NCBI GenBank assembly: GCA_963706795.1
Contig: OY970170.1
Span: 1 to 32,000, forward strand
Length of the DNA: 32,000 bases
Origin: Candidatus Saccharimonadota bacterium
GTDB lineage: Bacteria > Patescibacteriota > Gracilibacteria > BD1-5 > UBA2023
Reading direction: 5' to 3'
In this document: positions 1 through 32,000 of the stretch, piece after piece
How positions within the stretch are numbered: the first letter of the stretch is position 1
Layout of the letters: every line of letters begins with the position of its first letter
Translations under genes and position numbers: made by a program
Notes under the pieces: generated by a model
The model's input: the letters and a program-made list of their open reading frames with translations, nothing else
Databases searched by the model: none
Told to the model about the DNA's origin: nothing

Positions 1-437
1 CGTATTTGTTGGTTGCGAGCGCAAAACAATCACGACTTCTGCGGATTAATGCGATCGTAACGGTAGTAAATTTGGTAGGAAATCTCATCGTTATCCCCTA
101 CTATTCTTTTATCGGTTCAGCTATTGTGACGCTTGCGTGTCAGATCGTGCTTTTTGCGCTCACGGCTCGGGGGACTCGAGATATTTTGCGATTTGATTTT
201 TCGCCGAAGACGACGGGTGCAATCGTACTGGGGGTGAGCATGGCCTATCTCGCGATGCACTATACGGATACATTTATTACACAGATGTCAGAGCGGTTTT
301 TTGGAACTGGCTTTGTTGGAAACTTTGTAGAACTCACGATTGCCGCTGGGCTTTTTACCTGTATTTATGGCGCAATCGTATTTGGACTTGATCGGACTAT
401 GTCACGCATTAATATGATCCCATGACAAAATTTATAG
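1..437 (+). CDS. C-terminal fragment of a MOP-superfamily (Wzx/MurJ-like) flippase membrane protein; 5' end lies outside the window
   Basis: Frame 3 is open from the window edge. Multi-TM hydrophobic sequence (INAIVTVVNLVGNLIVIPYYSFIGSAIVTLACQIVLFAL...). The track ORF stops at TGA 423-425; under code 25 it continues I-P-G-Q-N-L to TAG 435-437. Confidence 0.5.
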
Positions 438-1828
438 ATATCAAAACGCTCGACTACATCGAAAAGGCGAATTTTAAAAATCGCACTTTTGAAGACTGGT
501 TGGTCGAAGTCAAAGAATACAATTGCTCCGGCGACAGCGAAATTCGTGCGATCGAAAAAGCACATTTTTCACTCGAACGCGCAAGCGAAGATCGTGTTCC
601 TGGAACGGATCGCGCTCTCGAAATGGACCAAAAACTCCTGCCAGTTCTGGCTCGAATGGAGCATTACGGTGTGTATGTTGATCGCAATGAGCTTCAGAAT
701 GTTGCGACAGAACTCGCCGAAAAAGCACGTGCTCTTGAGATCGAAATGCGCGAACTCGTGGGTGAGCCATTTAATCCACTCTCTGCAAAACAGGTTCAGT
801 ATATTCTCTACGAAAAACTCGGACTCTCTCCTGGTAAAAAGATCAAGACGGGATTTTCGGTGGATTCTGAGACGCTTGAGGAGCTCGGTAAAACCTGTGA
901 GATCGCCAATATGATCCTCCTCTATCGCGGCTACGAAAAGCTCCGCGGAACCTACGCGGACGGGCTTCAAAAAGAAATCAATGTCCATACAAAGCGCATC
1001 CATACCACCTATCGCGAAACGGTCGCAAGTACTGGTCGACTCTCGAGCGAAAATCCCAATCTTCAAAATATTCCGATGGGAGATGGATATTCTGCGCGTA
1101 TCAAGGCAGCATTTAAGCCACAAAATCCTGATGAAGTCTTTGTAGTTGCGGACTATTCACAGGTCGAGCTTCGTATCTTGGCCATGCTCACTGGTGACGA
1201 ACACCTCATCAGCGCATTCGAATCCAATGAGGATATCCATATGCGAACCGCGAGATTTCTCTTCCCAACAAGCGAGCATATCTCGAGCGAACAACGACGT
1301 ATCGCAAAATCCGTAAACTTTGGAGTTATCTATGGGATCACTGGATTCGGACTCTCCAAAATGATCAAAGCGAGCCCCAAAGAAGCGACGCTCTACATCG
1401 ACACATTCTTTGCAAAATACCCACAGGTAAAGGCGTACTACCGCGACCTCCTCGACCAAGCCCGCCTCACCGGCTACGTCGAAACCTATTTTGGACGCCG
1501 TCGTTATGTCAAAGGCCTCACGGACGCAAACTCCATGATGCGAGCCGCAGCCGAACGCGAAGCTATGAATATGCCCATCCAAGGAACTGGTGCAGATGTC
1601 GTAAAACTCGCCATGATCGAAATCCAAAAGCGACTCGATGCCAAACCCGAGCTCTGAAATCTCATCATGCAAGTCCACGACGAACTCGTATTTGAGTGCA
1701 AAAAGGACCAAGCCGATGCCCTCGAAAAGGTCGTCCGAGAAGTCATGGAAGGTGTATTCCCTCACGACCGAGTCAAACTCAAGGTCGATATCCATAGAGG
1801 AGAGAACTGGAGTACAGCGAAAGGGTAA
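422..1828 (+). CDS. polA: DNA polymerase I, polymerase domain only (about 468 aa, no 5'-nuclease or 3'-5' exonuclease domain)
   Basis: Family-A motifs DYSQVELRILA, RRIAKSVNFGVIYG and QVHDELVFE. The last motif lies downstream of in-frame TGA 1655-1657 in the same frame. In-frame TAA at 410-412 blocks any N-terminal extension. Stop TAA 1826-1828. Confidence 0.9.
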
Positions 1829-1838
1829 TTACATATTT

Positions 1839-2483
1839 ATGAAAACCGAATCCGAATACCTTGCAGATACCATCCGTGTCTATGATGCAGATGCGCTGAC
1901 TTTTGCCAAAAGCGTAGCCGAGCAAGAGTGACTGAGTGAATATTACGCTCGTTTTACTGTATTACTCACTGGAAAGAAAGTCCTAGATCTCGGATGTGGT
2001 TCAGGACGAGATATGAGTCATTTTGTTGAACTCGGACTTGATGCTCATGGCATCGATCTCAGCAGTGAACTCATAAAAGTCTGCAAGCAAAACCCCCTCA
2101 TTGCAGACCGCGTATCTATTGGGAATATTCTCGAAATCGATCAAGATTTTGAGGCAGGTACATTCGACGGTATTTGGATGTTCTGAGCGCTCGTCCATAT
2201 GAGCAAAGAGCTCGGTGCCGAGTCGATTGCAAAAGCTTCAAAACTCCTCACAAGCAAGGGGACACTCCTCCTTTCTCTGAAGTGGCAAACAGAAGGAGCT
2301 CCTGCAGAAATTATCAAAGAAAGTCGTTCAATCCCCTGAGTCGTAAAGCGCTACGTCTATTTTACAGAATCCGAAATCCAAGAAATTTTAACGAAAAACA
2401 ACTGTAAATCTCTCTGGATAGACAAAAAATTACCAGAAAATGGACGCGATGGCTGGATTGTAATTCTTGGCCAGAAGGTCTAA
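1839..2483 (+). CDS. Class I SAM-dependent methyltransferase
   Basis: Motif I VLDLGCGSGRD, then a FDGIWMF-G-ALVHM post-I region. Three in-frame TGAs (1929, 2184, 2337) join fragments in one frame. Stop TAA 2481-2483. Confidence 0.8.
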
Positions 2484-2504
2484 AACAGACAAAACTCAAT
2501 AACC

Positions 2505-2530
2505 AAAAAGACCCTTCGTGGGTCTTTTTT
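2505..2530 (+). terminator. Rho-independent terminator (AAAAAGACCC-TTCGT-GGGTCTTTTTT)
   Basis: GC-rich stem flanked by an A-run and a T-run, 22 nt after the methyltransferase stop. Identical 26-mer recurs at 3144..3169. Confidence 0.75.
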
Positions 2531-2540
2531 CTCTCAATAG

Positions 2541-2569
2541 TTGACAACTAACTTTTTAGGGGATAATCA
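2541..2569 (+). promoter_or_regulatory. Sigma70-like promoter for the 2633 gene
   Basis: TTGACA at 2541-2546; GATAAT/TAATCA-like -10 at about 2562-2569 (15-17 nt spacer). AGGAGG Shine-Dalgarno at 2622-2627. Confidence 0.4.
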
Positions 2570-3143: not shown

Positions 3144-3169
3144 AAAAGACCCTTCGTGGGTCTTTTTTA
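3144..3169. terminator. Bidirectional rho-independent terminator, exact copy of 2505..2530
   Basis: Same 26-mer AAAAAGACCCTTCGTGGGTCTTTTTT with A-run and T-run on both sides. The TAA stop (3167-3169) of the convergent minus-strand gene sits in its 3' edge. Confidence 0.75.
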
Positions 3170-4102
3170 AGCGAAGATGATCGCGGCATACCAGTCTCGG
3201 CGGGCGAGCTCTCAGTTGTAATTGCGGAGTGCAGTAAATGTACGGGCGCTTTCTGGGAAGTATTTCATCTCATAATTGAGGCCTTCAGTGAGGTCTTTTT
3301 TAGTGAGTTCTGGAGCGGAGAATACTTTGCGAGCGTCATTGATCGTAGGGATAAATCCCTTGAGATTGGTGACGATATCAAAGGTTTGTTTGCAGATTTG
3401 TTCTTCTGGGATTTCTTCTGCGGAGCTATAGAGTGCGGCATAATAGACAAGACCAAGGGTTGTATTCGCGTACGAATTGGTCACATTTCGACGAAGGACT
3501 TCGAGCGCCTTCATATATTGATCGATGCGAATATTGTCAGCCCTAAGTGTATGAATAGCGGTCTTTACATCGCTCTGTGGAATCGAGTGAATCGCACGGA
3601 GTGGAAGTTTTTGGAAGAATTTTGCATAGCGCGCAAAGCCGCGATTGTCCGTGATACGCATCATCATGTCATCAAACACCGAAGACGTAAGCTGAAAATC
3701 TCATCGTGCACCCGTCTCAGATTTGAGAATCTTGCCACCATGCGACTCATGGAACCAGAGTCTTGAGGCGATTACAGGCGAGATATCAAACCCTTTGGCA
3801 AGTGTGTGAACATAGGTTTTGATGCTCGGATCAAACGTCAGACTCATTTGGCCTGCATCGATTTTATAGAGTTCCTTGTTGTAGGTTTTGAGGCGCTCTT
3901 TTCGGTAATCATTCGCAAATTTACGTTCGCGTTCACGGAGATTATTACGGATCCAAACAACATCTGAAGCACGGGCCTGGACGCTCGATATAATTCCAGT
4001 AATTGCCAGGGCTCCAGAGGCCACTAAAAAATGTCTCTTAGAATGAGACTCTAGCTGGGTTTCCTGGGATTCGAGGGTTGGTGAAAAACGAGAAAAAGTC
4101 AT
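3167..4102 (-). CDS. Secreted or membrane-anchored lytic transglycosylase (SLT domain)
   Basis: Track ORFs 3701..4102 and 3212..3679 are in the same frame and joined by TGA 3701-3703. The join reads WFHESHGGKILKSETGAR-G-DFQLT, which is the SLT catalytic E-S and GAxGxxQ motif with TGA at the conserved Gly. A second TGA at 3212-3214 adds 14 codons before TAA 3167-3169. N-terminal hydrophobic anchor HFLVASGALAITGIISSVQA. Confidence 0.8.
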
Positions 4103-4185: not shown

Positions 4186-4545
4186 ATGTCATCAACCTCC
4201 TCCCGCAGAAACGAAGTCCTCTTTGGACTTCTTGCACCTGTTATCCAAAATATTTCCCGCGAACACCTCGAAGGATTTGGACGAATCGTCCTCATCCGCA
4301 CAGAGCTCGCAGGCGATGGAATGTATCTCGATTGCACTATCAGCTCCGAAATCAATGGTCTCGCATGTGCAAAGGCACTTCGAGATTTTGAACCTATCGT
4401 CAAAAAGACGATCGCTTCTGCAAAGATCCTTGGTAAGATGCCAAAGATCCGATTTAAATTCGATACCAAGGCAACAAACGCCGCTTCCGTAGAAGATATA
4501 CTTCGTGAAATCGAGACAAAATATGATCTCAGTAGCGAGAATTAA
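4186..4545 (+). CDS. rbfA: Ribosome-binding factor A
   Basis: 119 aa. RRNEVLFGLLAPVIQNISRE...IVLIRTELAGDGMYLDCTIS...PKIRFKFD matches the RbfA layout (N-terminal R-rich helix, V-x-V-S-x-D-like strand, C-terminal P-x-L-x-F-x-x-D). Stop TAA. Confidence 0.6.
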   Translation: MSSTSSRRNEVLFGLLAPVIQNISREHLEGFGRIVLIRTELAGDGMYLDCTISSEINGLACAKALRDFEPIVKKTIASAKILGKMPKIRFKFDTKATNAASVEDILREIETKYDLSSEN

Positions 4546-5539
4546 ACGTATTCTCACGGGATTGAAGCGGAAGTTTTCTAATCGGAAATTTCGCAAAAAT
4601 GCCGAAAAAGAACGCTCCCAAAAATTCCTCTTCGAGAATACAAAAAAACCTCGAGCGAGCTTTTTTGAGATGTATCAAAAAGCTCGACGCGGTGCATATT
4701 TTAGACCCTTCTATTCAGCATTCGAAAAAAACGCAAATGAGTTCCGCGTAGCCTTTAGTGTGATTGGGGTGCTTCTCATTTTTTTGACGGTATATATTAC
4801 GCTCCTCTCGCCATATTTTAGGATTTCTCCGAATAGAGTCATCATCGAACCAGCACAAGGAGATGATTTTTCGGATATCAATATTGCCTATAAAGCGATC
4901 GAAGATATCTATGGGAAATCTCTTTGGTTCACGACTACGAGCGAAATCACCAATGCGATACAATCGCTCGAAAAAAACATCGGCAAAGTCGATGTTCAGC
5001 GCCTCTATCCAAATGGGCTCAAGATTGTTATCGAATCCTATCCACCCGTATTTACCGTACATTTTAGAGGTCTTGATCGGAAATTTTTACTCTCACAAAA
5101 TGGGATTCTCATACCGGTTCATATAAAGCGTGATGATCTTCCTCCGATGAATATTTATTCGACTGATCTCATCGAATCAGCCTTTTTGGACTACAAAGAA
5201 GCGATCTCCGCGCTTCGCATGAAACGCATCATTGGTCTCACGAATGCGTTCAAGGAGCAGTTCCCAAAAGTGACTATTACTTCGCTCTCATATTACAAGA
5301 CCGAGAACGAGATTCATTTTTTCCTCGAAAATGGGACTCGTATCATCTTCCTCCTCGACGATACGCTCGATAAGGAGTTACAGGCACTCAAGATAACTGA
5401 ATGAAACACACCAGGACTCCTGACTGGATGAGAATTCTTTTATATCGACACACGCATCATCGGTAAAATCTTTACGTGCAAGGACAAAAATCTCTGCACC
5501 AAAAATCTTGAGAAAATCTATGGAAACGCCATTAATTAG
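4523..5539 (+). CDS. ftsQ: Cell division protein FtsQ/DivIB-like (TM plus POTRA); start uncertain (4505, 4523 or 4670)
   Basis: TM segment FSVIGVLLIFLTVYITLL, then a POTRA-like region (ISPNRVIIEPAQ...VDVQRLYPNGLKIVIESYPPVF). TGAs at 5402 and 5429 are read through to give ...YIDTRIIGKIFTC... Stop TAG 5537-5539. Confidence 0.7.
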
Positions 5540-5969
5540 CATTCCGTTCCCCATAAAAGATATTTGGCATGTCATCTACTTTGAAAAAGAGCTGATATTG
5601 GCAGGCATTATTGTAGCTGGTGCACTCATATATTACTGCTATCAGGTCTGGTCGCGTTTTGAGAGTATTGAAGAGATGCATTCTCCTAGGCCAAAAACTA
5701 ACTGGTCAGCACTCTATCGCACCCTCAATCCCAAATCGCCCGATTTTGCGAAGCGCATAGAATCTCTCCTCATCGAATTCGCCGAGCAAGAATTCGCCAT
5801 CACCCTGCGAGACTCGCTTACTGCAGAAGAAAAATCCAGGCTCGTCGCTTCTCCCGAAATCTCTCGTTGCCTGAAACTCGCTCGCGATATTCGGTATTCA
5901 AAATCAGGAGATCAGTCAGCTAAAATCCAAGAACTCGATACTCTCGCATCACGTATTTTTGCACCGTAA
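5520..5969 (+). CDS. Small single-TM protein at the head of the Bat-like operon (architecture resembles DUF4381-type components)
   Basis: One TM (LILAGIIVAGALIYYCYQVW) plus a soluble tail. Its TAA overlaps the next gene's ATG (TAATG at 5967-5971). Confidence 0.5.
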   Translation: METPLISIPFPIKDIWHVIYFEKELILAGIIVAGALIYYCYQVWSRFESIEEMHSPRPKTNWSALYRTLNPKSPDFAKRIESLLIEFAEQEFAITLRDSLTAEEKSRLVASPEISRCLKLARDIRYSKSGDQSAKIQELDTLASRIFAP

Positions 5970-6988
5970 TGCATTTTGTTTTTTTCGCTCCTGAATTCCT
6001 CGTATTGGGCTTTGTTGCTCTTTTTTGGATTGGGTGAATCCTCTGAGAGAAGCGTTTCGCGATCTATTTCCGAAGTGGTACGCAGACAGATGCTTGAGCT
6101 TCAAAAAATAGAATATTTCGAGCAGCCCTCTGAGCAATGAGTATCATTTTACTCTCGATTGGGATGGCCGATCCACGGATCACCGAGACGCACAAAGATA
6201 CTTCAAAAAATGGGATCGATATTGCAATCGTGCTCGATATCTCAAAGAGCATGCTCGCAGAAGACATCTCACCAAGTCGCATCACAGCAGCAAAAAAGGC
6301 GATCATACGATTCATCGAGGCACGTCCAAATGATCGTATTTCGCTCACAATTTTTGCGGGGAAACCTTTTTTGTTATCACCACTCACCTTTGATAGCACG
6401 GTGCTTGTGCAGATCGTAGGGAGTATCGGAGTGGATTCGATCAAACAGGAAATCCCTGGTTTTTCGGGAACTGCTATCGGCGATGGTCTGCTTCTTGGCT
6501 ATCAAAGCCTCGAAAGCGAGCCCACACGCGAAAAAATCATCGTCCTTCTTACTGATGGCGAAGCCAATCTTGGCATCGATCCCAAGGCGAGTGCGCTCTA
6601 TGCCAAAGAAAAAAACGTCAGCATCTACACCATTGGCCTCTGAAATCCCAAAGGCACTGAGCTCTACACAACTGAGATAAACGGCGACAAAAAATATTTT
6701 GTCGATGGACAAAAGAATCCCATCATCGCCACCATCGATGAGAAACTTCTAACATATATAGCCGAAAGTACTGGTGGAAGTTATGCCAATGCTACGAGTT
6801 CAAACGCACTCTCGAGTATTTTTGAGAAGCTTTCAAAACTGAGACTTCGTCCGATTGTGGATAATTCGGTGATTACAGAAAATACCCCACTGAGCCCCTA
6901 TAGTTTTGGACTCGCGATTTTGTGCATGCTCGTGCTTCTCTTGCTTGAGAGGAAGCGACTAGATTCTTGACTGGGATCCGCATGGTAA
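5969..6988 (+). CDS. BatA-like membrane-anchored von Willebrand factor A (VWA) protein
   Basis: N-terminal TM region recovered only by reading TGAs at 6035, 6044, 6095 and 6131 as sense. VWA MIDAS motif DIAIVLDISKSM, LLTDGEAN, C-terminal TM. Further TGAs at 6641 and 6968. Stop TAA 6986-6988. Confidence 0.85.
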
Positions 6989-7917
6989 TATCAATCTTTA
7001 TCGCTCTTGTGGTGGGAGTCATCGGACTCTACTTGCTTTTTTTGAAGCCAAAACCTGCGATCGCCAATGAGAGCAAGAACTATAGAGTGATACAGCTCCT
7101 CTTTATACTCAAAAGACTACTGATATTAACAGGGGTGATCTGACTCTCCGCTATCTCAAGCTGGCTCATCATCACAGGAAGTGCTTTTTCGATCGCACAA
7201 GGCTCCAAAATGATCATTCTGGTCGATGTTTCCAAGAGCATGCTTACTGTAGATATCGTATCTGGCGGGACAAAAATCTCACGGCTCGATGTTGCAAAAT
7301 CAAAAGCGATCGAGATGATACGGACATTTGCATGACATCCGATTTCGATCATCGCATTTGCCTGAGAAAGTCGCACTATTACGCCATTTACTACTGACAG
7401 TGAATCAAATATCAATGCAGTGACGACCCTCTTGCCTGAGAGCGTCTCTGTTGGCTGATCTGAGATAGTGACTACACTCGTAGACGCTCTGGCAATATTT
7501 GAGCCGTCTGAAGCTGGTTCGGTCATACTCATGAGCGACGGCGATGATCGTAGTATCGACACGAGTCCACTCGAATCCCTCATCCGTACCCATCAAAAAG
7601 TACATATTTATCCAATCGGAATCGGAGGTGATACTCCATCTCCTCTCGTGCTTGGCAAAGATATCATCGGTAATCTCCGATATAAACAAGTCGATTGAAA
7701 AATCCTCCAAACCAAACTCGAGGATGATAATCTCAAAACACTCGCAAGCATGACTGATGGGAAATATTTCCACTATCTCGACACCGCGTCACTCTCGTCT
7801 GATCAAGCCTCCAGTCCCGAAAAATCCTATTCATGATTGGCTATTGCCTTGAATTTAATGGCAATCCTCATTATGCTCGGACTCATACTCCCCTATCGAT
7901 ACCGATGAAAAAAGTAG
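6982..7917 (+). CDS. BatB-like membrane-anchored VWA protein
   Basis: ATG overlaps the BatA-like stop (ATGGTAA). MIILVDVSKSM MIDAS motif, IIAFA-G-ES with TGA 7363-7365 at the conserved Gly, LMSDGDD, C-terminal TM. Seven in-frame TGAs. Stop TAG 7915-7917. Confidence 0.85.
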
Positions 7918-8810
7918 CTTTTGCGATCTTGATTATGCTCCTTGTGACTCTCTTTTGAGTGCGTACTTGGGGGATTTCGATGATCCAAAATGAGATGCTT
8001 GTAGCTGCATCAAAACAATCCTGGATCGATAATGCTGACAGATTCCTTATCGCACATAGTCTCTACCTCAGATGAAGCGGAAGTATCGCCCGAGATCTCT
8101 GGCAACAAACGATTGATCCTACAAAAAAATCGGAGAATAACCTGTATGCACTTCATAATATCGGCAATACGTATGTCGATGAAGCGCAATCTCAAAAACA
8201 GATCAACACCCAGATTTCCCTGCTTTTAGATGCAAAAACTGCATACGAATCTGCTCTCAAAAATGGATCAGACGCCGAAACTGAGTCCAATCTTGAAGCT
8301 GTCATCAAAATCCTTGAGAAGCTCCAGGCCAAGCAAGAAGAACAAAAAAAAGAATCCGCGCAGGATTCAAATTCGGATGCAAATATACCGTCATGAACAA
8401 CTGGAAGTGGCGCAACTTCCTTAACTGGATCAACGGATTCACAAGATCAAGGCAATAAAACCTCTAGTGGAAGCAATGATGCAGCTGCAAGCTCGAGTGG
8501 CTCACAGAGTGCTACAGGATCGGCAAGTATTCCAAAAAACAATGGATCCCTCTTCACTAATCAAGGCAAGACAGAATCCACTGGCAGAGACTTTGGATCA
8601 GGCACATGAGAATCCCTCAATCCCGACGAAAAAAACAAGATCGAGAGTATTCTCAGAGATATAGACCAGCTCCAAAAACAACGCAGCGATTACACGCGAC
8701 CTGATGGTACTAAAGCTCCAACTACCGGCGGACTCTTCGAGCAATTTCTCAAATCTGATCCCCTGTTTGAGGATCTACAAAATGGTGGAAGTGGGAAGCG
8801 AGATTGGTAA
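7905..8810 (+). CDS. BatC-like TPR-containing protein with a Ser/Gly/Thr-rich linker
   Basis: ATG 7905 overlaps the upstream gene by 13 nt. Signal/TM MKKVAFAILIMLLVTLF; TPR-like NLYALHNIGNTYVDEAQ...AKTAYESALKNGSDAETESNLEAV. Four in-frame TGAs. Stop TAA 8808-8810. Missing from the track because the frame lacks internal start codons between TGAs. Confidence 0.6.
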
Positions 8811-8821: not shown

Positions 8822-8855
8822 AATTACTTTTTATTGAACTTAAAAGTAATTTTCT
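8822..8855 (+). terminator. AT-rich hairpin terminator after the Bat-like operon
   Basis: AATTACTTTT (8822-8831) pairs with AAAAGTAATT (8842-8851), a 10-bp stem followed by a T-run. It overlaps the last codons of the convergent gene. Confidence 0.45.
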
Positions 8856-9699
8856 CGGTATCTGAAGGTATTGGAAAGTATTCGTTCGCCTGTGGGTGAT
8901 CTTTATACCAAAGATTCCGAGACTCCGTAATATCTCTCTCTACTCAATCTAATGACGTAATAATTACAGCACTAGTAAGACATGTTCATTGTGATAGACA
9001 TCGATCAAGTTCGTTATTCACAAAAAGTATTCCACTTCCAGTTCAAAGATGACTCACATAATTCGAGACAATCTTAACATTTTTTGCACGAATCTTTCAG
9101 TGTCTTGGGATAAAAATCTGTGTACCCACTGGATATTGAACACGGTATGTTACTTCGCTCGACACTTCAGGAATAAAGTCTTTGATGTATCTATCCGTCT
9201 GAGTAGCACAGTAAATTGATGGATGAGCTTCATCTCATGAAGACATCTTAAACGTATTTATAGAGAATTTTTCATATTTTCTCTGGATAAATCAACCCTG
9301 CAGTATTTTTTTGATTCAAAAAATTCTGTCATCTTGTGAGTGTGTTATATCTGGAATATAGACACTATTCTGAGTCGCTTTCGCATCTTTTCTTTGTCCT
9401 ATGCACAGATATTCAAATTGCGTCGATTCCTGGATAGCACCACTTCAAGATATACCTGGAAGATTTACAATTCACCCACTGCCCTGATACGATGAATAGT
9501 ATGCATCCCACGAAATTTCGTTGAGTCACATCATTGTTTGCCCTGTCTGTAGAACCTTGTTGAACGGATTAGCATCTGCATTTAAGAGAATAGGCAGACT
9601 TAGTTCGTATTTTGAAGTAGCAAATGTGCATTGTGTTATTCAAATAAAAAGCACGAACACTAGAATATTTAAGGAGGTACGAATAGGGCTTATCATCAT
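8824..9699 (-). CDS. Hypothetical secreted protein, 291 aa, 11 in-frame TGA codons (absent from the supplied ORF track)
   Basis: On the minus strand, the frame with codon starts equal to 1 mod 3 has no TAA or TAG between 8827 and 9741. ATG-ATG at 9694-9699. N-terminal signal-like MMISPIRTSLNILVFVLFIGITQC. Stop TAA (plus-strand TTA 8824-8826). TGAs fall in Gly-plausible contexts (SGGIV, ISGSG, HLGTGSG). Confidence 0.65.
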
Positions 9700-9866: not shown

Positions 9867-10517
9867 ATGCTGACTTTAAAAAGAGCAGTAGCAAGTTTTG
9901 CAACAACCATTCTGGCCGCTACAGTATTTATGAGTAGCGCGTTAGCATATACCGATCTGCCTGTTAACGCTGCAAAATTTCAACTTTTTAGCGGTGGCTC
10001 ACCGGTTGACAATTTCTTTGCACCTGATAATGGTCAATTTGATAAGCTCATTCTCAAGGTGCAAGATAGCAATTCGTACCAGTTACAGAACAATCCAAAC
10101 TGGGTAAATGCCAATATGCCCGTCCCGATTTCAGTAGGTGGACGTGCAAGAGTTGGCAACGGTCAGTGTGTTGATTTTGTAAAGCACATGACCGGTAATT
10201 TTGCCTCATCAAGTAACTGGCTCAAAGGCGACCACGTCAGTGAATATTGGGATCCGAATGCACTTGTTGGCAAAGTGATTGCAACATTCAATTCAAGTGG
10301 CAATTACGACAATAGTCATGTTGCTATCGTTATAAGCGCATGGAAACGAAGCGGCAGTAATACTGTAACAGATGTCTGGGTAGTGGATGCAAATTTTGTG
10401 CCTGATCACGGCTTAACAGTATCGAAGCATGCACTTAGCACTACCGGAAGCGGTTATGTCGGTAATCTTAAGAACTACTATATCGTGAAAATGAACTGAC
10501 ATTTCCAAAAGTTGTAA
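9867..10517 (+). CDS. Secreted papain-fold (CHAP/NlpC-P60-like) cysteine peptidase candidate
   Basis: Signal peptide MLTLKRAVASFATTILAATVFMSSALA. Candidate nucleophile GNGQCVDFVKH and downstream NSHVAIVIS His. SD-like GGAAGGA about 9 nt upstream. No internal TGA. TGA at 10497 is followed by 5 codons and TAA 10515-10517. Confidence 0.65.
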
Positions 10518-10526
10518 ATGAACTAT

Positions 10527-10559
10527 AAAAATCCTCGTCTTTGTGACGGGGATTTTTTT
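10527..10559. terminator. Bidirectional rho-independent terminator
   Basis: AAAAATCCTCGTC-TTTGT-GACGGGGATTTTTTT lies between convergent genes (one G-U pair in the stem). Confidence 0.7.
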
Positions 10560-10560
10560 A

Positions 10561-11271
10561 TTATCTACTCATCACCAAAGTCCCCACTACCCCGCTATCC
10601 CCGAGTCGGTCAATATCCTCGATCTTACATACAAAGAGCGGGAGTCGCTCTTCTTTGGCAAGTGCGATGGCGCTCTGATCCATGATTCGTAGATTTTTCT
10701 CGAGCGCTTCTTGATGAGTAACCTGATCATACCGCTTCGCTTCAGGGAATTTTGCAGGATCCATATCATAGACTCCATCCACTTTTGTACCCTTGACCAT
10801 AACTTCACAATTGAGTTCGAGCGCCCTGAGAACGGCAGCGGAATCAGTTGTGAAATATGGATTTCCAGTTCCAGCTACGGCGATAACCACTCTTCCCTTT
10901 TCAAGATGCTTCATAGCACGACGTCTGATGAAGAGTTCAGAAACACGTGGGATTTCGACCGCGCTCATAATGCGAACCTCTTGACCTTGTTTTTCGATAG
11001 CATCGCCGAGCGCGATACCATTCATGACGGTGGCGAGCATTCCCATATAGTCAGCACTCGAACGATCGATTCCCTCTGCTGCACCAGATACTCATCGGAA
11101 AATATTGCCACCTCCGATGACGATCACGACTTCTTTTTTGGCAATCTTTACGAGGTACACGATTTTAGAAGCGAGTGTATGAAGAAAATCCACGTCGATT
11201 CCGTGGTCATTTTTTCATTGAAGTGCTTCACCTGAGAGCTTAAGGAGGTATCGTTTACTCTTGCTGATCAT
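10561..11271 (-). CDS. pyrH: UMP kinase
   Basis: MISKSKRYLLKLSGEALQ-G-KNDHGID...[36 protein letters not shown]... TGAs at 11215-11217 and 11092-11094 fall on the conserved Gly of GEALxG and GGGNIFRG. Stop TAA 10561-10563. Confidence 0.93.
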
Positions 11272-11282
11272 AAAAAATGTAT

Positions 11283-11308
11283 AAAAAAAGCTCCCAACGA
11301 GGAGAGCT
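11283..11308 (-). terminator. Probable rho-independent terminator (minus strand)
   Basis: Minus strand reads AGCTCTCC-TCGT-TGGGAGCT followed by T7. It overlaps the TAG stop of the 11307..11882 gene. Confidence 0.5.
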
Positions 11309-12416: not shown

Positions 12417-12421
12417 AGAAA

Positions 12422-12790: not shown

Positions 12791-15434
<2,644 letters not shown>

Positions 15435-15468
15435 TTTGCGACAAAAAAGCTTTGCGTAGAATGCCACC

Positions 15469-20709: not shown

Positions 20710-21861
20710 CTAGATGAGCAGCATGCCGTCTCCAAAGCTATAAAATCGATAATTCAGACGAATTGCCTCCGCGTAGAGTTCAAAGAGTTTTTCTCTTCAT
20801 AAAAAAGCACTCATCATGCACAAAAGCGTACTCTCAGGCAGATGAAAATTGGTCACGATTGCGTCGACGATGGCAAATTTGTGACCTGGATAGATAAATA
20901 TTTTTGTGCCCACACGGACACTCGTCGCATCAACCGAAAATACACGGATATTGTCCGAATCAGATATCCTCACATCCCAAAATGCGCGTACAGTGTCAGG
21001 AACTGTCACCTGATCTCGGATTGCACCCCAGAGTTTTGGAAGTGATTCGAGCGTGCGAACCATTGTGGTTCCGACTCAGATAACGCGTTTATTTTGCATC
21101 TTTAGATTCGCAATTCGTTCAAAAATATCGACGGGAATTTCAAAATATTCCTCGTGCATCTCATGATCGCGAATATCGGGCGAATTCATGATTTTAAAAG
21201 TCCCAATTCAGACGTGCAGTGTTGCAAAAGCAGTTTGAATATCCGCAGATGTAAGATCATCTAAAAGCTTCTGCGAAAAATGAAGCGAAGCCGTCGGCGC
21301 AGCGAGTGAACCATCTTTTTGAGCGAATACTGTTTGATAATCCTCCGCCTTTGCATCGTCGTATTCGATATAGGGTGGAAGTGGTAATCGTCCGTATTCC
21401 ATAAGGAAATCCATAATATTTCCACCACTCAAGAGCTCAAAAGTACGCCCCTCATAGGTGATCGCATCCACCTTAAAGCGATACTCCCCAAGCTCTACGA
21501 TCGTTCCGATTGGGAAATAGTCTCATGGATAGACCATAGATTCAAAATGCGTTTCATCATAAGATCTCAGATAGAGAAGCTCCGCGCCTCGTTCACGCAT
21601 AACTCCTGATGGCCGCGTGATCTTAAAGGCATCATTAATTATCCGCGCCGGCAGCACCTTCGAATCATTAAAAAAGAGCGTATCACCTGCAGCTAAAAGA
21701 TCAGGAAGATTTGCAAAAGATTGGTGCTCTGAACTCTCTGTCTTGCGATCATAAACAAACAGTTTTGCACTTTCGGCTGGATGAACAGGGACTTGTGCAA
21801 TCTGAGATGGTGGCAGATCGTAGCGATAGGACGCAAGATCAAAATCAGTTTCGTGTAACAT
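20710..21861 (-). CDS. queA: S-adenosylmethionine:tRNA ribosyltransferase-isomerase
   Basis: Three track ORFs share one frame, joined by TGAs at 21523, 21208, about 21076 and 20797. [55 protein letters not shown] (TGA at the invariant Gly), [23 protein letters not shown]. Start ATG 21859-21861. Stop TAG 20710-20712. Confidence 0.9.
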
Positions 21862-22510: not shown

Positions 22511-22539
22511 TTGACACTAGTTCATTTAATTTTATAAAT
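22511..22539 (+). promoter_or_regulatory. Sigma70-like promoter for the 22612 gene
   Basis: TTGACA (22511-22516), 17-nt spacer, ATAAAT (22534-22539). AAAGGAG SD about 8 nt before ATG 22612. Confidence 0.5.
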
Positions 22540-22611
22540 TACCCACTCTATGCGGCACAAAACCTGCCTCAAATGACCAAAAATCCAAACCAATCCAGAA
22601 AGGAGCACTAA

Positions 22612-23343
22612 ATGGCTACCAAAAATAGACATGTTGTAGCAACATGGGAGCAGATTAACATCATACACAGAGCAATAAAAGAAGTGCTTGCGTATTGCCT
22701 ACGCAATAAAGGTAAAGCACACGGTATATTCCGTGCGACGATCGCAAATGTAGCCGATATCGAACGTGCACTCACTCAGTTAGTGGGCAAAAAACCACGA
22801 GCTGGTCTGGATTCTACTCATACAATCTCTGCTCTAGATTGGCTCATATATACTGCACCAATAACGGTATTTCTGTTCAAAGCTGTAACAAGGCCAGAGG
22901 ACAATAATACCAACCCTACGGTCGCCAATAAATTGAACGAATTACTCACGCAAGCCGTTCAAATAATCGAAGCGGTAGAAACAAAAGCAACCGTGTACTA
23001 TACGCTGTCCGAAAACCAGTTTAGTGGAATAATGGACATCTATGTCGCAATTGACCGCCTCTACACGGCATCTCCAGAAAAAAACGAACCGCTCGTTGAG
23101 TGTGTTCGTTCCGAACTCACGGCACTACAATTGAAGCTGGAGACAACAAACTCTCCGCTCGAAATGTCGCTCAAATCCTTCGGAAAATTTTATGTAATTA
23201 CCGTAGTATTCTCCGCTGAACTCAAGGCCAGCAGAACCCTTCAAAATCTTGCGCATCATGTGATTGTTCCAACATTGAATATCACATATAAGCAAAGAAT
23301 GGCCGATCATATAATACATAATCTGGTCAACCAACCCTGGTGA
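22612..23343 (+). CDS. Hypothetical alpha-helical protein (243 aa as drawn; ends at TGA, see findings)
   Basis: Good SD and promoter. No internal TGA. The ORF ends at TGA 23341-23343, with a terminator hairpin 43 nt downstream. Under code 25 the frame stays open to TAA at about 23704-23706. Confidence 0.55.
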   Translation: MATKNRHVVATWEQINIIHRAIKEVLAYCLRNKGKAHGIFRATIANVADIERALTQLVGKKPRAGLDSTHTISALDWLIYTAPITVFLFKAVTRPEDNNTNPTVANKLNELLTQAVQIIEAVETKATVYYTLSENQFSGIMDIYVAIDRLYTASPEKNEPLVECVRSELTALQLKLETTNSPLEMSLKSFGKFYVITVVFSAELKASRTLQNLAHHVIVPTLNITYKQRMADHIIHNLVNQPW

Positions 23344-23385
23344 TGTAAGCCATGTATACAAAACATCCGAGAGAAATCTCACTTC

Positions 23386-23418
23386 AAGCCGTACCCATTT
23401 AGATACGGCTTTCTTTTG
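23386..23418 (+). terminator. Rho-independent terminator
   Basis: AAGCCGTA-CCCATTTAGA-TACGGCTT followed by TCTTTTG. Confidence 0.55.
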
Positions 23419-23455
23419 CAGGAGCCATTCTTGCAATTTCTCGGTTTTCTATACT

Positions 23456-24970
23456 ATGTTGGCACTTTTCGCCGAGCACATTTTTATGAAAGCAAAAAAC
23501 GAACTTCCGTTCTTTTTGAGAGAGTGATTTCTCTCAAAGTTGCCAGCAGTCCTGCTCGTTGGAATCTTTATCGTGCCACTCGCACTCATCAAGATCAATT
23601 ATCAGATCGGACTCTTCTTTATTGCCTTTTATATCGCGTATTGGGCAATCAAGGTATTTGAGTCGTATTATTATGTTCTCAAGTCCTACATTGAGCTCGT
23701 AGATTTTAATAAGACAGACTTCTCTAAAAATGAATTCCTTTTGGAGAATGGCAAAAATATTCACCACGTCGTAGTTGTACCTATATATACCGAGCCATAC
23801 GACGTCATCGAAGAGAATGTCATGGCCATCCTCGAGAATGAATATGCATTCATGGATAAGGTAACCATCCTACTCGCAACCGAAGCTCGCGCTCCAGATG
23901 CCGAAAAGCACGCCCAGACAATCATCAAAAAATTTGCGAATTCTGCGGTCAAGATCGTCAATATTGTCCACCCAGAAAACATTCCTGGCCATGGTAAGGT
24001 GAAGGGGTCCAACATCACCTACGCCGTTCAAGAATACGAAAAACTCCAGACACTCGATCCACACAACACCTATATCTCAACGATTGATACGGATACCAAA
24101 GTCGAAAAGAGCTTCTTTTCGATCGTGACCTACTGTTTTGTGAGCACGGAATACCGTGATCAGGCGATCTACCAATATACGCCCGTCTACGCAAATAACT
24201 GGATCCATGGGACATTCTTTGCACGACTCATTGCGATGGGTACGACATTTTGGCAGCTTTTTGAGTCTCAAAATCCTGAGTTCTATCGCAATTTTGCGGT
24301 CTATGGACAATCACTTGAATGTCTCAAGCGCTCTGACTATTGGTCACGAACTTCGATCGTAGAAGACGGCCTTCAGTACTGGAGAAGCTATTTTGCATGG
24401 GATGGAATGTTCCGCATCGTCAACGTTCCTGCTGTATGTCGCATGGACCTCGTAGATGAAGAAAATCTCTGGAAGACTGTTAAATCCCAATACAAACAAC
24501 TCAGACGCTGGTCATGGGGATGTACAGATATCGAATTCGTTCTTCCACAATTTTATAAGAACAAGAAGATCCGATTTGGAGAAAAAATCCGTAAATCCGT
24601 CTATCTCATCCAAAATCATCTTTTTTGGGCTGGCTGAGCATTTATGCTGTTCTTTATCGGCTATATTCCAGGGATTTCTGAGAGTCTACGTAACTCGATC
24701 GCAATCCTCACGGTCCCACTCGCAAGCTCAATCATATTTACGACGCTCTTTGCTACGGTCGTATTCCCAAGCTTCATGTCGATCCATATCATGAAGCGGT
24801 ATACAAAATTCCGAAAGCGAGATTACATCTATAATATCTTGCAGTGGCTCGTCGTGCCGCCGCTCACACTCACACTCTTTTCGCTTCCTGCTATCGAGAG
24901 TCAAATTCGTCTCTTCCTTGGAAAGCGTATCGACCATTTCGAGACTACTCAAAAAATGAAACGTAAATAG
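23456..24970 (+). CDS. Integral-membrane processive family-2 glycosyltransferase (cellulose/chitin-synthase-like); start at 23456 or 23486
   Basis: VVVVPIYTEPYDV, GKVKGSNITYAV (K-A-G-N-like), TIDTDT (DxD), VEDGLQ (ED), QYKQLRRWSWG (QxxRW). N- and C-terminal TM bundles. TGAs at 23525 and 24635 join the fragments. Stop TAA 24968-24970. Confidence 0.85.
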
Positions 24971-26449: not shown

Positions 26450-28546
26450 ATGTCTCAAAATATTTCTCTCGCATCTGCGACAAACACGGGTAAAAATACC
26501 CAAAGTTTCTTCGAGCGATCTTCGCTTGCACTTCAAAAGATTATCAAAAAAGCGAGCGGAGCCAGTCAGCAAATTCTTGCGTCTGTTGGACTCGCCTCAG
26601 CACTCGTGGCAACTGACGCAGCTGCAGATTACAAGACACCAAAAAATACCGAGGATCGTTTTTATGTGCTCAATGCCAATGCACCCGAGCCTCGCCGTGA
26701 GATTATTCTCACACCCCACACATCAGCCATCCGCCGCGAAACTGCCATCTACCAAGAAATCGAGGCGACTGAAGCTCCCTCAAAAAAATCGCAGGCAAAA
26801 TCTGTTTCACTAGTTGGATCAAAAGCATCCGAACCAAAACATGCCCCTATTCCTGTTCAATCAACTCCGCAGATTGTCACACTCACTCCACCAAAGCCTG
26901 CTCCAGTTCGCACCGAACAAAAAATCATCGCAGTAGCACCACAGACTCCAAAAAAATCTGAAGCTCCGATTAATAAAATTGATCGCATTGTTCCAGTTGA
27001 TAACTCAGATATAAAAGTTCCATTTGTTGATGGCCAAGTGCTTGCGCTTCGTAATTCTCATGCGAATGTTCGCGATATTACGGGAGATACCTTCAGTCCG
27101 ATTGCTACGATCCAAAAGCGCGATAACGACACGATTACGTTCGATGCAAATCGCCCAGTAAAGCGAAATGAAGCAATGGATATTACTTTTTATCCAGTCA
27201 CTATCACGAGCAAGGATCAGTCGGTAACCTCAGGATATATTTCGAGTATTCTCGTAGGTGAATTTGTTGCACCAAAAGCAAGGACCGTAGCTGTAAAGAG
27301 CTATCGAAGCACCCAATATGTTCGCAATGAGAAGCTCAGCGACGAAGAAAATGAATGGCGAGAAAAGCTCTCCAAGATGGAGCCATATATCGACTATGGA
27401 ACCAAATACCAATTCCGAACACCACAAGAAGAGCTCAAACAGATCATCACAAAAGTCGGACTGGATGAGAAGCAACTCGATGCGCTTATTCCTTTGATCA
27501 GCCACATTGCTCAGCATGAGAGCAATTGGAATTACGGAGCAAAGGGAGAACGAATTACACATAATTCTGTGCACAAAGGTACGCAGGCACTCGGGTTTAT
27601 TCAGGTTATGCCATATAACTGGTATCGATGGTCAAAAGAGCAGAACGATGGAGTGGTGGTAGATGTAACAGATGTAAATCAAGAAAAAATCGGTCTCGGA
27701 GCGATCGGTGCTTACTACAAAAAGTATCAGGACCGTGGACTCAGCTTTGATTCAATGCTCAATGAACTCGCGATGGACTGGTACGGACGCACAGTGGTCA
27801 ATGGACTCCCCTCTCCTAGTTCATACGCAAACAGATTTATCCGATCAGTAAAAGCAGATACTGAGCATGTTAATCAAATCAAGACACTCTACGCAAGCGC
27901 ACGAAGCAGCTCTACTCCTGTAGTCGCAAAAGCAGAATCCAAAAAGCTACAAACATCAGCAGTGACTCCTGCCTTTGATGCATCAATGCTTCAAAAGGTT
28001 TCGATGAATACAGCTTCGCTCATCGATATGCCAGCAGTGAACGATTCTGCATATTACAAGTCAGCTCCAGCTATCCAAAAGGGAATGAGCAAAGTCGTAG
28101 AGCTCAAAAAATATCTCGAAAACAAGCCACATCGCACATCCAAAGAAGAATCCTACACACGGACCTTTGCAAATCTCGATACAGAGATCAAAACTGCCGA
28201 TCGATCTATCGAAACCGCAGCGAAGACCGGCGATACTCGTAATCTCATCGCATTCCAAATCAGGAAGTGAAAGGCGCTCAAGGATGCTATGTCTACCACT
28301 CTCGAAATCGCTCCAAAAGCCGAAATTCGAAATGTTCTCGCTGCTGGAATCAACGAAACCGAAACGATGATGAACAATATTATCAGCTTCAATCGAGCAA
28401 TCCAGAAGCAGTCAACAACCACAGCCAAAGCAGAAGAAGTTCCACTCAAAAATCGCAAACTTGTAGCCCGCAGAGAAGAGTTTGCCTCCAATCTCGCAGA
28501 CGCACGTCTGAATCGAGCATCGGATCTCATTCGAAGAGCTGCTTAA
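26450..28546 (+). CDS. Large (698 aa) envelope protein with an N-terminal anchor, Pro/Lys-rich linker, SH3b-like region and lytic transglycosylase (SLT) domain
   Basis: ILASVGLASALVATDAAA anchor/signal. IAQHESNWNYGAKGE...GTQALGFIQVMPYNW (E-S ... G-x-x-Q). TGA 28268-28270 joins track ORFs 26450..28270 and 28289..28546. Stop TAA. Confidence 0.75.
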
Positions 28547-28550: not shown

Positions 28551-28584
28551 AAAAAATCTCCGCCAAATTGGCGGAGATTTTTTA
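28551..28584. terminator. Bidirectional rho-independent terminator
   Basis: AAAAAATCTCCGCCA-AAT-TGGCGGAGATTTTTT (10-bp perfect stem). The rsgA TAA stop (28582-28584) lies in its T-run edge. Confidence 0.85.
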
Positions 28585-29628
28585 TCCGATTTCTGCGCGA
28601 AGTCTCAGATACGTTTTATATCGAAAATCGAGGATTTTTCAGGACTGTACAGCTTCTTTGATGCCACAATCTGACTCATGGATATGTCCACAGTCATTAT
28701 ATTTACAGAGCTTCGCATATGGCGCAAACTCTGGGAAATACATAATGAGCTCCTCCGCTGACATCTCCATAAATTCGAGTGAGCGGATTCAGGGCGTATC
28801 CACAATATACGAATCCACATCCCAAGGATAGAGCGTAGATGCTGTCGTTGTATGTCTTCCTTGTCCATCTTTGCGGCTCACGCCCGAGGCAATCGTGGCG
28901 TCTGTACCAAGCACGGCATTCGTGAGTGAGGACTTCCCTACTCCACTCTTGCCCACAAAGGCAATAGTCTTACCACGAATGGCTGCTTTGAGCTCAGAGA
29001 TTCACTGTGATGAGACGCTAGAAGTATGGATCACGGTAATACCGAGCTCATGTTCGTACCAATCAAGTACAGGATCACTAATAGGCTTGAGATCACTCTT
29101 GGTAATACAGACAATTGGTCGAATACCGGATTCTTCTGCCAAAATCATATATCGATCAATAAATCCTGGCTGAAAAGCAGGACTTTTTGCAGAAGCAACG
29201 ATCACAATTGCATCGAGATTAGCTGCAATCGACTGACGAACACGCTTATGGAGCGAGAAACGATCTCCATCTCACTTGTATCTCGCAAGGAGATTCTTGC
29301 GTGTCACTACGCCTAGGAGCTCAGATCACTCAAATGCCAAAATATCACCAATGACTATCTGATGATAATTAGGGTGTTGCATATTTAATACAACGCTCTG
29401 CATATCACCATCAGAATCAATAGATTCAATAGTCTTGGTAGTCATCGCCGGACGAATAGCCGAAACGCGAAATTCTCTCGATCATACTGGAAGCAACACA
29501 AAAACATCCTCACGCTCTGCTGATACGTGCGCTACAATGTCTTTACGTGGAATGGACTGCTTTTTTGTTTCCTTCTTTTTACGGTCTCATTTTTTTGGGC
29601 GTTCGTACTCATCGGAGAATTCTCTCAT
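28582..29628 (-). CDS. rsgA: Ribosome small-subunit-dependent GTPase A
   Basis: Codon-by-codon minus-strand read: NLDAIVIVAS, CITKSDL (NKxD-like), VGKSGVGKSSL (P-loop), VDTP-G-IRS (TGA 28789-28791 at the G3 DxxG glycine), CKYNDCGHIHESDC zinc knuckle. Seven in-frame TGAs. Start ATG 29626-29628. Stop TAA. Confidence 0.9.
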
Positions 29629-29755: not shown

Positions 29756-29769
29756 TTAACATATGTTAA
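29756..29769. promoter_or_regulatory. Perfect 14-bp palindrome TTAACATATGTTAA upstream of the SDR gene (possible operator)
   Basis: Perfect dyad 8 nt upstream of ATG 29777, in the divergent rsgA/SDR intergenic region. The AT-rich context lowers its significance. Confidence 0.2.
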
Positions 29770-29776
29770 ATATAAT

Positions 29777-30586
29777 ATGAAAACCATATTTATAACCGGT
29801 GCTTCTACCGGTCTTGGCAAATCTACAGCGCTTCTTTTCGCAAAAAATGGCTGGCATGTCATTGCTACAATGCGCAAACCTGAGCAATCAGATCTCACAA
29901 ATCACAAAAATATTGAGCTTGTTGCACTCGATGTCACCAATCCAAAACAGATCACCGAAGTTGTACAAAACGTCACAAAATCACACTCGATTGATGTTGT
30001 ATTTAATAATGCGGGCTACGGTCTCGCTGGTCCATTTGAAGGCACGGAAGATGCTGAGATTGTGCGTGAACTTGATACCAATCTCCTTGGTACGATGCGT
30101 GTTACTCAGGCATTTATTCCGTATTTTAGAGCGAAGAAACATGGACTCTTTATCAATACAACATCCATTGGTGGGCATGTGACATTCCCATTTAATTCGG
30201 TCTATCATGCAACCAAGTGGGGTCTCGAAGGATGGAGTGAGAGTCTTTGGTTTGAGCTCAGCAAATTTGGTATCGGTATAAAAACCGTGGCACCAGGAGG
30301 GATTCTCACGGATTTTGCAGGACGATCCTTAGTGCTTGCTACACATGACGCATATACTGAGCTTTGAGAACAGGCGAGCAAGGTTTTCTTTAATCCAGAA
30401 CGCGCAAAAAAGTACTCAACTCCCCAGCAAATCGCAGAAGTTGTCTACGAAGCAGCAACCGATGGTAAGTCAAAACTTCGCTATATCGCCGGAAAAGATG
30501 CAAAGCAAGCGTATCGCTTCCGTAGAATATTCGGAGATCGATTTTTTATGAACATGATCAACAAACTCTTCTTTGGTAAGAAATAA
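29777..30586 (+). CDS. Short-chain dehydrogenase/reductase (classical SDR)
   Basis: TGASTGLGKS (TGxxxGxG), NNAG, S...YHATK catalytic motif. TGA 30365-30367 is read through to TAA 30584-30586 (269 aa). Confidence 0.85.
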
Positions 30587-30625
30587 TTTGATCATCAAAA
30601 AAAGATATACCATGAATAAAAAAAT

Positions 30626-30663
30626 CAAATTCGAGACCAAATGTACGGGTCTCGAATTTTTCT
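30626..30663 (+). terminator. Rho-independent terminator
   Basis: AAATTCGAGACC-AAATGTAC-GGGTCTCGAATTTTT. Confidence 0.7.
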
Positions 30664-30834
30664 TTGTGATGCCCACACAGGAGTACTGCAACAACACAAA
30701 AACGACAATAGTGAATAGCTCCTTTACGGCGTATACTTAAGTGGACTTGCACAACAGTTTGCGGAATTTCTGACACATGGAAGGATGAAAGAAGATGGCC
30801 GACTACGGACATTTATTCGTTAAAACTTCATCCT

Positions 30835-32000
30835 ATGAAATATACTCGGAAATGAATCGTTGCAATTTCGATACTCTCGATTGCATCCATTTTTACACTT
30901 TGAGCGAGCGCGGCGACAACCTCGACCGTGAATCTCGGTGAAACATCAGGCTTTGCCATTTTGGCCGGCACTTCCGTCACCAATATCGGAGCGAGCACAA
31001 TTACCGGAAATATTGGAGTCAATCCTGGAACTACGATCTCAGGATTTGCCCAATGAACGGTCTTCGGAACGCAACAAATCGGAAGTACTTCTGCTATGCA
31101 GGCACAGACTGATTTAAATAACGCCTATAGCGATATTAATGGACGTGCTAATCCAACAATACTTTCGAGTGACATTGGTGGCACAACGTTGACACCAGGT
31201 CTCTATCATGCAAATGCAGCATTGAGCGTTAATGGCATCGTCACACTCGACGCACAGGGTGATCCAAATGCCATATTTGTAATCCAGGCAATGGACAGTA
31301 TGAATATAGCCTCTGGAAGTCAGATCCGACTTATTGGATCAGCTCAAGCATGTAATGTGTTTTGGCAGAGTAACAATAGCGTATTCCTTGGATCGAATTC
31401 GATCAATCTTGGTAACTTTATTGCTGCCAACTCTATTTCACTTGCCAATGGTGCCCTACTCAATGGACGTGCATTATCTCGTAATGGAAGCGTGTCACTC
31501 GACACAAATACAATCAGCGTTCCTGTATGTACTCCCCAGTCTCCTTTAGGGACTCTGCGAGTTATTACCAATGTTATCAATAACAATGGTGGAAACATGA
31601 GTGCAGCCAGTTTTACAGTACGAGTTCGTTTGAACGGAAATTTTGAAGTACCAGGAAGTCCTGCTAATGGCATGATCTCTCCAGGTCTCAGTTATAGTCT
31701 CACTGGAAGTAGTACATATGTAGTCACTGTAGATAGCAATGTCTATCCTTATGCAACTGCACAATTCGGAACGGATTGTAGCGCACAGGGATCTGTATAT
31801 CTACCTGTTGGCGCAATACGTACTTGTACGATTACACTCGATGACATTGCCCCAATTGACGTATGTCCATACGGAGATTTTTCTCCAAATAAATATGACG
31901 GGCATTGTGTAGTACCCGTGATTGCTGTGGTCTCAAAGGCTATTCCAGCCGAGGTACCATTTGCAGGAAGCACGGTAACCTACACATATACGATCTCTAA
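30835..32000 (+). CDS. Secreted DUF3494 (ice-binding-like beta-solenoid) protein with C-terminal Ig-like/adhesin-type domains; 3' end lies outside the window
   Basis: Signal MKYTRK-G-IVAISILSIASIFTL-G-ASA. LGETSGFAILAGTSVTNIGASTITGNIGVNPGT, LTPGLYHA, TLDAQGDPNAIFVIQ, GSAQACNVFWQ, LNGRALSRNGSVSLDTNTI. Then LRVITNVINNNGG...TCTITLDDI and a TVTYTYTIS-type repeat. TGAs at 30853, 30901 and 31054. Confidence 0.8.

Follow-up and report, generated by a model that had tools for sequence, protein, structure and literature searches.

Genetic code 25, in which UGA stands for glycine, was reportedly described in 2013 by Campbell and by Rinke in Candidate Division SR1 and Gracilibacteria. The GTDB class JAEDAM01 unites BD1-5 and Absconditabacterales, with hundreds of genomes assigned to code 25. 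UGA is also a sense codon in the code 4 lineages, where release factor 2 (RF2) has been lost and UGA is read by a tRNA with the anticodon UCA. Here, we analyze the reading of UGA in a stretch of 32,000 bases (43.5% GC), positions 1 to 32,000 of contig OY970170.1, which is called the window below. The window is almost certainly chromosomal DNA of an uncultured member of the Gracilibacteria (BD1-5-type, Candidate Phyla Radiation) that uses genetic code 25. In this code UGA is glycine, UGG is tryptophan, CGA and CGG are arginine, and translation stops only at UAA and UAG.

The hallmarks of code 25 are a tRNA-Gly whose anticodon is UCA and the loss of RF2 (PMC8629427; bioRxiv 10.64898/2026.05.24.727570). 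In another BD1-5 population, proteomics recovered 97 peptides specific for Gly and 3 specific for Trp (PMC4032931). Absconditabacteria (SR1) have an extended code, in which CGA and CGG are read as tryptophan (Shulgina and Eddy 2021, PMC8629427). The window resembles other code 25 genomes in its UGA glycine and UGG tryptophan codons, in UAA and UAG as sole stops, in the small size of the genome (the source contig has 1.27 Mb), and in the TGA-recoded Gracilibacteria that are its neighbors by GyrB. It does not differ from them in kind, but its GC content is at the upper end of the range in the clade and it uses TGA sparingly. The recoding of UGA to glycine is already known, as it was described in 2013 and confirmed by proteomics in the clade, and nothing in the present case is new in kind.

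In-frame TGA codons and gene ends

Genes were delimited as frames bounded by TAA or TAG, scored with a self-trained codon model, and cross-checked against Pfam. The first pass yielded 27 genes and the gaps another four, giving 31 genes and, in addition, one orphan open reading frame (ORF). The 31 genes (9,382 codons) contain 70 in-frame TGAs. Of these, 59 lie in the first-pass genes, and the remaining 11 in a conserved gene at 8824-9699 on the minus strand that was overlooked in the first pass. At least one in-frame TGA is present in 23 of the 31 genes, and eight genes, including gyrB, have none. The frequency of TGA is 7.5 per 1000 codons, or about 11% of the glycine codons in the window.

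No internal TAA or TAG is found in any of the 31 genes. In the other two frames on the same strand, the two codons together occur 21.9 times per 1000 codons. About 205 would therefore be expected in 9,382 wrong-frame codons, versus none seen. TAA or TAG terminates all 30 complete genes (TAA in 16 and TAG in 10 of the first 26, and likewise TAA or TAG in the four added genes). The sole exception is the orphan ORF, which has an apparent TGA end. ORFs of at least 150 amino acids cover a fraction of 0.60 of the window when table 11 is used and 0.94 when TGA is taken as sense, versus 0.69 when TAG is taken as sense and 0.76 when TAA is. In a control set of 80 gyrB loci from other genomes, table-11 coverage is 0.65-1.0 and the gains are small.

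The Pfam profiles of several families run across the TGAs almost whole, as in QueA (profile positions 2-322 of 322), PyrH (1-233 of 234), RsgA (2-173 of 174), and ApbE (2-262 of 266). Thus, UGA is in frame inside conserved genes, and UAA and UAG are the only stops of complete genes. To yield the full-length conserved proteins predicted from these frames, ribosomes would have to read through TGA. Tryptophan is still encoded by TGG, and both tryptophan codons of the GT2 motif QLRRWSWG are TGG. The original prediction, which was made from the letters of the window alone, agrees with these results. It had put the in-frame TGAs at about 70, had described frames broken by TGA and never by TAA or TAG, had retained TGG for tryptophan, and had found TAA or TAG at all the gene ends that it could define apart from one anomaly, which is probably the orphan ORF at 22612-23340. 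The seven TGAs that it had singled out (11215, 11092, 28789, 21208, 3701, 12270, and 7363) are all in frame and have the peptide contexts that it gave.

Amino acid assigned to UGA

The identity of the amino acid is addressed at the DNA level by comparison with a sister species (GCA_049315825.1; L082 in our set), whose GyrB is 96% identical. Orthologues were aligned codon by codon, and the pairing of codons does not depend on any prior translation. Of the 49 TGAs of the window that have a partner, 21 are paired with GGN, 17 with TGA, 11 with other codons, and none with TGG. The excess of GGN is highly significant (binomial P = 5e-18). For every codon but TGA, the most frequent partner agrees with the standard meaning of the codon. 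TGG is opposite TGG in 24 of 27 columns of the orthologues, and it is never opposite TGA.

The comparison of orthologues also bears on the arginine codons. CGA (115 codons, 134 per 10,000) has arginine codons as partners in 57 of 67 columns, and CGG (23 codons, 27 per 10,000) in 11 of 16. Since both pair with arginine codons, the code is plain table 25 and not the Absconditabacteria variant with CGA and CGG as tryptophan. UGA as glycine is common to both codes, but here CGA and CGG are common and arginine-paired, with no sign of a reassigned arginine codon. The Absconditabacteria variant is excluded, as the two codons are neither rare nor aligned to tryptophan.

Three independent lines of evidence indicate glycine, and the first of them comes from proteins. 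When the TGA columns are aligned to solved structures from standard-code organisms, glycine is the majority residue in 10 of 15 columns and tryptophan in none. In the uridylate kinase PyrH (10561-11271, minus strand), the columns of both TGAs (11215-11217 and 11092-11094) are glycine in five of five structures, and the sister species has GGG and GGT there, in line with the invariant glycines claimed for this enzyme. In QueA (20710-21861, minus strand; TGAs 21523, 21208, 21076, and 20797), residues X218 and X355 are aligned to glycine in three of three structures, X113 to G/A/A, and X262 to A/A/S; its partners in the sister species are GGG, GCC, and GGA. The proposed glycine at 21208 agrees with X218 and with its GGG partner, and that at 7363 in a VWA protein with its GGA partner.

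The RsgA GTPase (28582-29628, minus strand) has seven TGAs, at 29587, 29482, 29326, 29272, 29002, 28789, and 28639. The residues of the last three, X209, X280, and X330, are aligned to glycine in every PDB chain shown. Among 150 diverse RsgA representatives, these conserved columns are glycine in 139/150, 144/148, and 114/147 proteins, respectively. The second figure bears out the invariant glycine proposed for the DTP-G motif at 28789. In the ApbE FAD:protein FMN transferase (16453-17292, minus strand), the TGAs at 16819, 16801, 16729, and 16519 are paired with GGA, TGA, GGA, and TGA in the sister species. Its residue X158 is aligned to glycine in four of four structures, X164 and X187 each in three of four, and X258 (TGA 16519) lies in a variable column. 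A PDB search with the HepT protein and with the SLT-like protein found no match, so the glycines proposed at 12270 and 3701 are not confirmed at the residue level. Taken together, codon pairing and protein alignment support the view that UGA is read as glycine, and not as tryptophan.

Lineage of the source genome

GyrB (12791-14698, minus strand), which is recognized by Pfam and has no TGA in its gene, serves as the taxonomic marker. It is 100% identical to P0001, a protein encoded on an NCBI/ENA contig of 1,267,896 bp, and 96% identical to a protein of a "Patescibacteria group bacterium". With many proteins labeled Candidatus Gracilibacteria, and with that of a Rifle ACD genome labeled "gcode 4", it shares 72-79% identity. 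In the species-representative scan, GyrB proteins of standard-code Peribacteria (61-64%) are the best among the matches listed. Their loci have a table-11 ORF coverage of 0.83-0.94 and are not recoded. Peribacteria and Peregrinibacteria resemble the source in belonging to the Candidate Phyla Radiation and in GC content, but they use the standard code and their GyrB is more distant. An origin outside the Gracilibacteria, as suggested by the Peribacteria matches, was dropped in view of the GyrB matches of 72-96%, in which the NCBI-named proteins are from Candidatus Gracilibacteria or the Patescibacteria group. The presence of housekeeping genes and the size of the contig (1.27 Mb) rule out that the DNA comes from a phage or a plasmid.

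The NCBI label Gracilibacteria also takes in some standard-code genomes (bioRxiv 10.64898/2026.05.24.727570). As the label is not specific for the code, two relatives were inspected directly. L085 (GCA_023230505.1, 25% GC) and L086 (26% GC) have a table-11 ORF coverage of 0.02-0.03. Their gyrB genes (10001-11905) contain 32 TGAs each, which make up 32 of 55 glycines. These TGAs match GGN in the gyrB of the window in 30/32 and 29/32 cases, and in 80 standard-code GyrB proteins glycine is the majority residue at 31 of the 35 columns where the relatives have TGA. By the ranking of GyrB identity, the source is predicted to belong to the clade of TGA-recoded Gracilibacteria (BD1-5), as one of its GC-richer members. 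The use of TGA in the clade follows base composition, from 32 of 55 gyrB glycines at 25-26% GC to none at 43.5% GC.

Public proteins of the clade have been translated inconsistently. Some are table-11 fragments, such as VWA pieces of 53-79 amino acids and the gene calls of L082-L084; others have W from table 4 (P0120, P0123) or G from table 25 (P0016). This inconsistency leads to spurious tryptophan at glycine columns in homology searches. The fragmented public gene calls of related contigs bear out the warning of the original prediction that table 11 would misannotate the region. The window needs table 25, as table 11 fragments 23 of the 31 genes and table 4 turns 70 glycines into tryptophans. 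The value of the finding is practical, for annotation, rather than conceptual. It also provides a clean case of sparing TGA use at higher GC, which is relevant to code predictors based on coding density.

Decoding of UGA and alternative explanations

Identity elements of tRNA-Gly(UCA) are G1:C72, C2:G71, G3:C70, and U73. Going by what is established for the clade, a dedicated tRNA-Gly whose anticodon is UCA would decode UGA in the source organism, and RF2 would have been lost, so that UGA could not terminate. Some observations weigh against this explanation. No tRNA gene turned up when the window and six related loci (L001 and L082-L086) were scanned. About one-third of the TGA columns lie in variable regions, as in the ABC-F ATPase (aligned to Asp in PDB), the short-chain dehydrogenase (Val/Ile in PDB), and the N-terminal columns of RsgA. 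Finally, the orphan ORF looks as if it is meant to end at its TGA.

This last observation leads to the alternative that survives best, namely, that UGA is mostly glycine but terminates in some contexts, or is decoded ambiguously. The orphan gene (22612-23343, plus strand) consists of 243 codons without an internal TGA, and the very next codon, at 23341-23343, is TGA. A strong Shine-Dalgarno sequence (AAGGAG) lies just 5' of the ATG of the gene, and a promoter-like site at 22511-22540. Read-through of the TGA would add 121 codons (23344-23706) up to a TAG at 23707-23709. The extension would pass the start of the GT2 gene at 23456, overlapping it by about 250 bases, and its coding score is negative (-0.18, versus +0.11 for the body). 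A dual meaning is nevertheless an unlikely explanation. It rests on one case, for which searches gave no homologues: the ORF matches only itself among 5.8 billion proteins, scans of viral and metagenome sequences were likewise negative, it has no Pfam match, and its AlphaFold model is unusable (pLDDT 43, the model's confidence score). All 30 other complete genes end with TAA or TAG. Three other TGAs near the C-terminus are followed by short tails to TAA or TAG and are kept in the sister species, which is what plain read-through predicts. The simplest reading of the TGA end is a mutated stop codon (TAA to TGA), or a gene that is decaying or was acquired recently. That the UGA of the orphan ORF still terminates translation in a context-dependent manner, or serves as a ribosome-rescue site, is accordingly held to be improbable. 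If true, UGA would have two meanings in an organism presumed to have no RF2.

A reading of UGA as tryptophan, as in genetic code 4 of Mycoplasma and several insect endosymbionts, shares with code 25 that UGA is clearly a sense codon. The code 4 lineages (Mycoplasmatales, Hodgkinia, Zinderia, and Nasuia, among others) are alike in this respect but have tryptophan where the window has glycine. Database proteins of some relatives do have W at TGA positions (P0123, P0120), and the ACD relative bears the code 4 label. At the three conserved RsgA columns, W occurs in 4 proteins per column, all of which are proteins such as P0123, in which four of the seven TGA columns have W. The W residues are those of recoded relatives translated by table 4, and the same columns are glycine in 139-144 of about 150 homologues. 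With tryptophan at none of the PDB-aligned columns and TGA never opposite TGG in orthologues, where TGG so regularly meets TGG, code 4 is very improbable.

Still less probable is the standard code, under which the genes would be pseudogenes or the TGAs would be errors of sequencing or assembly. Most genes do fragment under table 11, and so do the public table-11 gene calls of related contigs. However, the frames are interrupted solely by TGA, and the TGAs occupy conserved glycine positions. In the sister species, 17 of the 49 aligned TGAs are kept as TGA, and the remainder are mostly GGN. Moreover, genes that are essential, pyrH, rsgA, and polA among them, would all be broken. Furthermore, the window agrees base for base, over 10,413 bases with 14 TGAs, with L001, an independent Logan assembly of run ERR12037365, in which the same strain occurs, and an assembly artefact is thereby ruled out. 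The least credible alternative is that the TGAs are selenocysteine or programmed read-through sites: although UGA is the selenocysteine codon of standard-code bacteria, the 70 sites are spread over 23 genes that are unrelated, their columns correspond to Gly rather than to Cys or Sec, and Rfam has no match in the window at the gathering threshold, SECIS elements (selenocysteine insertion sequences) included.

Start-stop overlaps

The three C-terminal TGAs that have short tails, at 423, 6968, and 7906, each lie exactly where the gene overlaps, as ATGA or TTGA, the start codon of the one that follows (422-425, 6967-6970, and 7905-7908). Each is followed by two to six codons before TAA or TAG, and 3/3 are kept as TGA in the sister species. 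They appear to be left over from ancestral overlaps of stop and start codons that predate the reassignment. Enrichment of TGA toward the C-terminus is not significant, with four in the last eight codons versus 1.8 expected (P = 0.105).

The first overlap joins the 3' end of a gene for a flippase-type membrane protein (3-437, plus strand), which ends with TAG, to polA, which starts at 422. The TGA is at 423-425, and the orthologue in the sister species is a Polysacc_synt protein in which it is kept. The other two overlaps are in a row of VWA genes. The first VWA-domain protein (5969-6988, plus strand; Pfam VWA_2 and VWA) has TGAs at 6035, 6044, 6095, 6131, 6641, and 6968, with GGA, TAC, ACC, GGA, TGA, and TGA as partners in the sister species. 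Its TGA at 6968 belongs to a TTGA overlap, the TTG of which may be the start of the next gene. This gene encodes the second VWA-domain protein (6982-7917, plus strand; Pfam VWA_2), with TGAs at 7141, 7333, 7363, 7456, 7696, 7834, and 7906 and the partners CTT, GGG, GGA, GGG, GGG, TTT, and TGA. The TGA at 7906 overlaps, as ATGA, the start codon at 7905 of a gene for a protein of unknown family (7905-8810, plus strand). Here, the TGAs at 7956, 8073, 8394, and 8607 are paired with GTT, GGA, CAG, and TGA.

Other genes of the window

The polA gene for DNA polymerase I (422-1828, plus strand) ends with TAA and has one TGA at 1655, which is GGT in the sister species. DNA_pol_A matches with E = 3.7e-135 over profile positions 2-380 of 381. 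PolA has 468 amino acids and consists of the polymerase domain only, with the match on residues 89-464; the 5'-3' and 3'-5' exonuclease domains were not detected in it. It is followed by a SAM-dependent (S-adenosylmethionine-dependent) methyltransferase (1839-2483, plus strand; Pfam Methyltransf_31/25), whose TGAs at 1929, 2184, and 2337 are opposite GAA, GCC, and GGA. A secreted protein, possibly SLT-like (3167-4102, minus strand), has TGAs at 3701-3703 and 3212-3214. The SLT label given to it in the original prediction is not confirmed, as the Pfam SLT match is below threshold (E = 0.15) and there is no PDB match. An FtsQ-like POTRA protein (4523-5539, plus strand) matches POTRA_1 weakly and has TGAs at 5402 and 5429, both GGA in the sister species.

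The gene overlooked in the first pass encodes a secreted protein of unknown family (8824-9699, minus strand) with 11 TGAs, at 9640, 9526, 9472, 9445, 9316, 9292, 9235, 9097, 9043, 8986, and 8944. The protein is 77% identical to its orthologue in the sister species (289 columns), where nine of the TGAs are kept, one is GGA, and one is CGA. TGA makes up 11 of its 21 glycine codons, versus 10 GGN, which is about five times the window average. With the simple codon model the gene scores as barely coding and might thus escape a gene finder. Further along the window is a CHAP-like secreted protein (9867-10517, plus strand) with a TGA at 10497 and a Pfam CHAP match (E = 8.5e-4) below the family cut-off.

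A HepT-like (DUF86) toxin gene (12081-12416, minus strand) and a gene for a nucleotidyltransferase that is an MNT-type antitoxin (12422-12727, minus strand) form a pair at 12081-12727 between gyrB and an HTH_17 gene. The Pfam HepT-like match (E = 4.9e-20) spans the TGA at 12270-12272, and the antitoxin is matched by Polbeta and NTP_transf_2 and has a TGA at 12539-12541. The pair is absent at the equivalent place in the sister species (7805-7919), and each of the two genes already contains one in-frame TGA. On the other side of gyrB, a gap of 770 bases (14699-15468) separates it from the divergent gene at 15469. No convincing ORF and no Rfam match are found in the gap, which is unusually long for so compact a genome. 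The gene at 15469-16452 (plus strand) encodes a conserved protein of unknown family without a Pfam match, and its TGAs at 15685, 15898, 15928, and 16312 are paired with GAT, TGA, GGT, and GGC.

The ABC-F ATPase (18036-19739, minus strand), identified by Pfam, has a TGA at 19356 that is GGT in the sister species. An Imm26-like protein (19914-20435, plus strand; Pfam Imm26, E = 4.5e-6) has a TGA at 20016. The GT2-type glycosyltransferase (23456-24970, plus strand) matches Glyco_trans_2_3 of Pfam weakly and has TGAs at 23525 and 24635. A large secreted protein (26450-28546, plus strand) has a TGA at 28268 and a Pfam SLT match (E = 8.5e-4) below the family cut-off. The short-chain dehydrogenase (29777-30586, plus strand; Pfam adh_short) has a TGA at 30365.

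The last gene encodes an ice-binding-like (DUF3494) surface protein (30835-32000, plus strand; Pfam Ice_binding, E = 5e-50), with TGAs at 30853, 30901, and 31054, and runs off the window end. In the Logan assembly (L001 9248-11410), the protein has 503 amino acids and its gene is directly followed by a sortase gene, which suggests that the ice-binding-like protein is a sortase-anchored surface protein.

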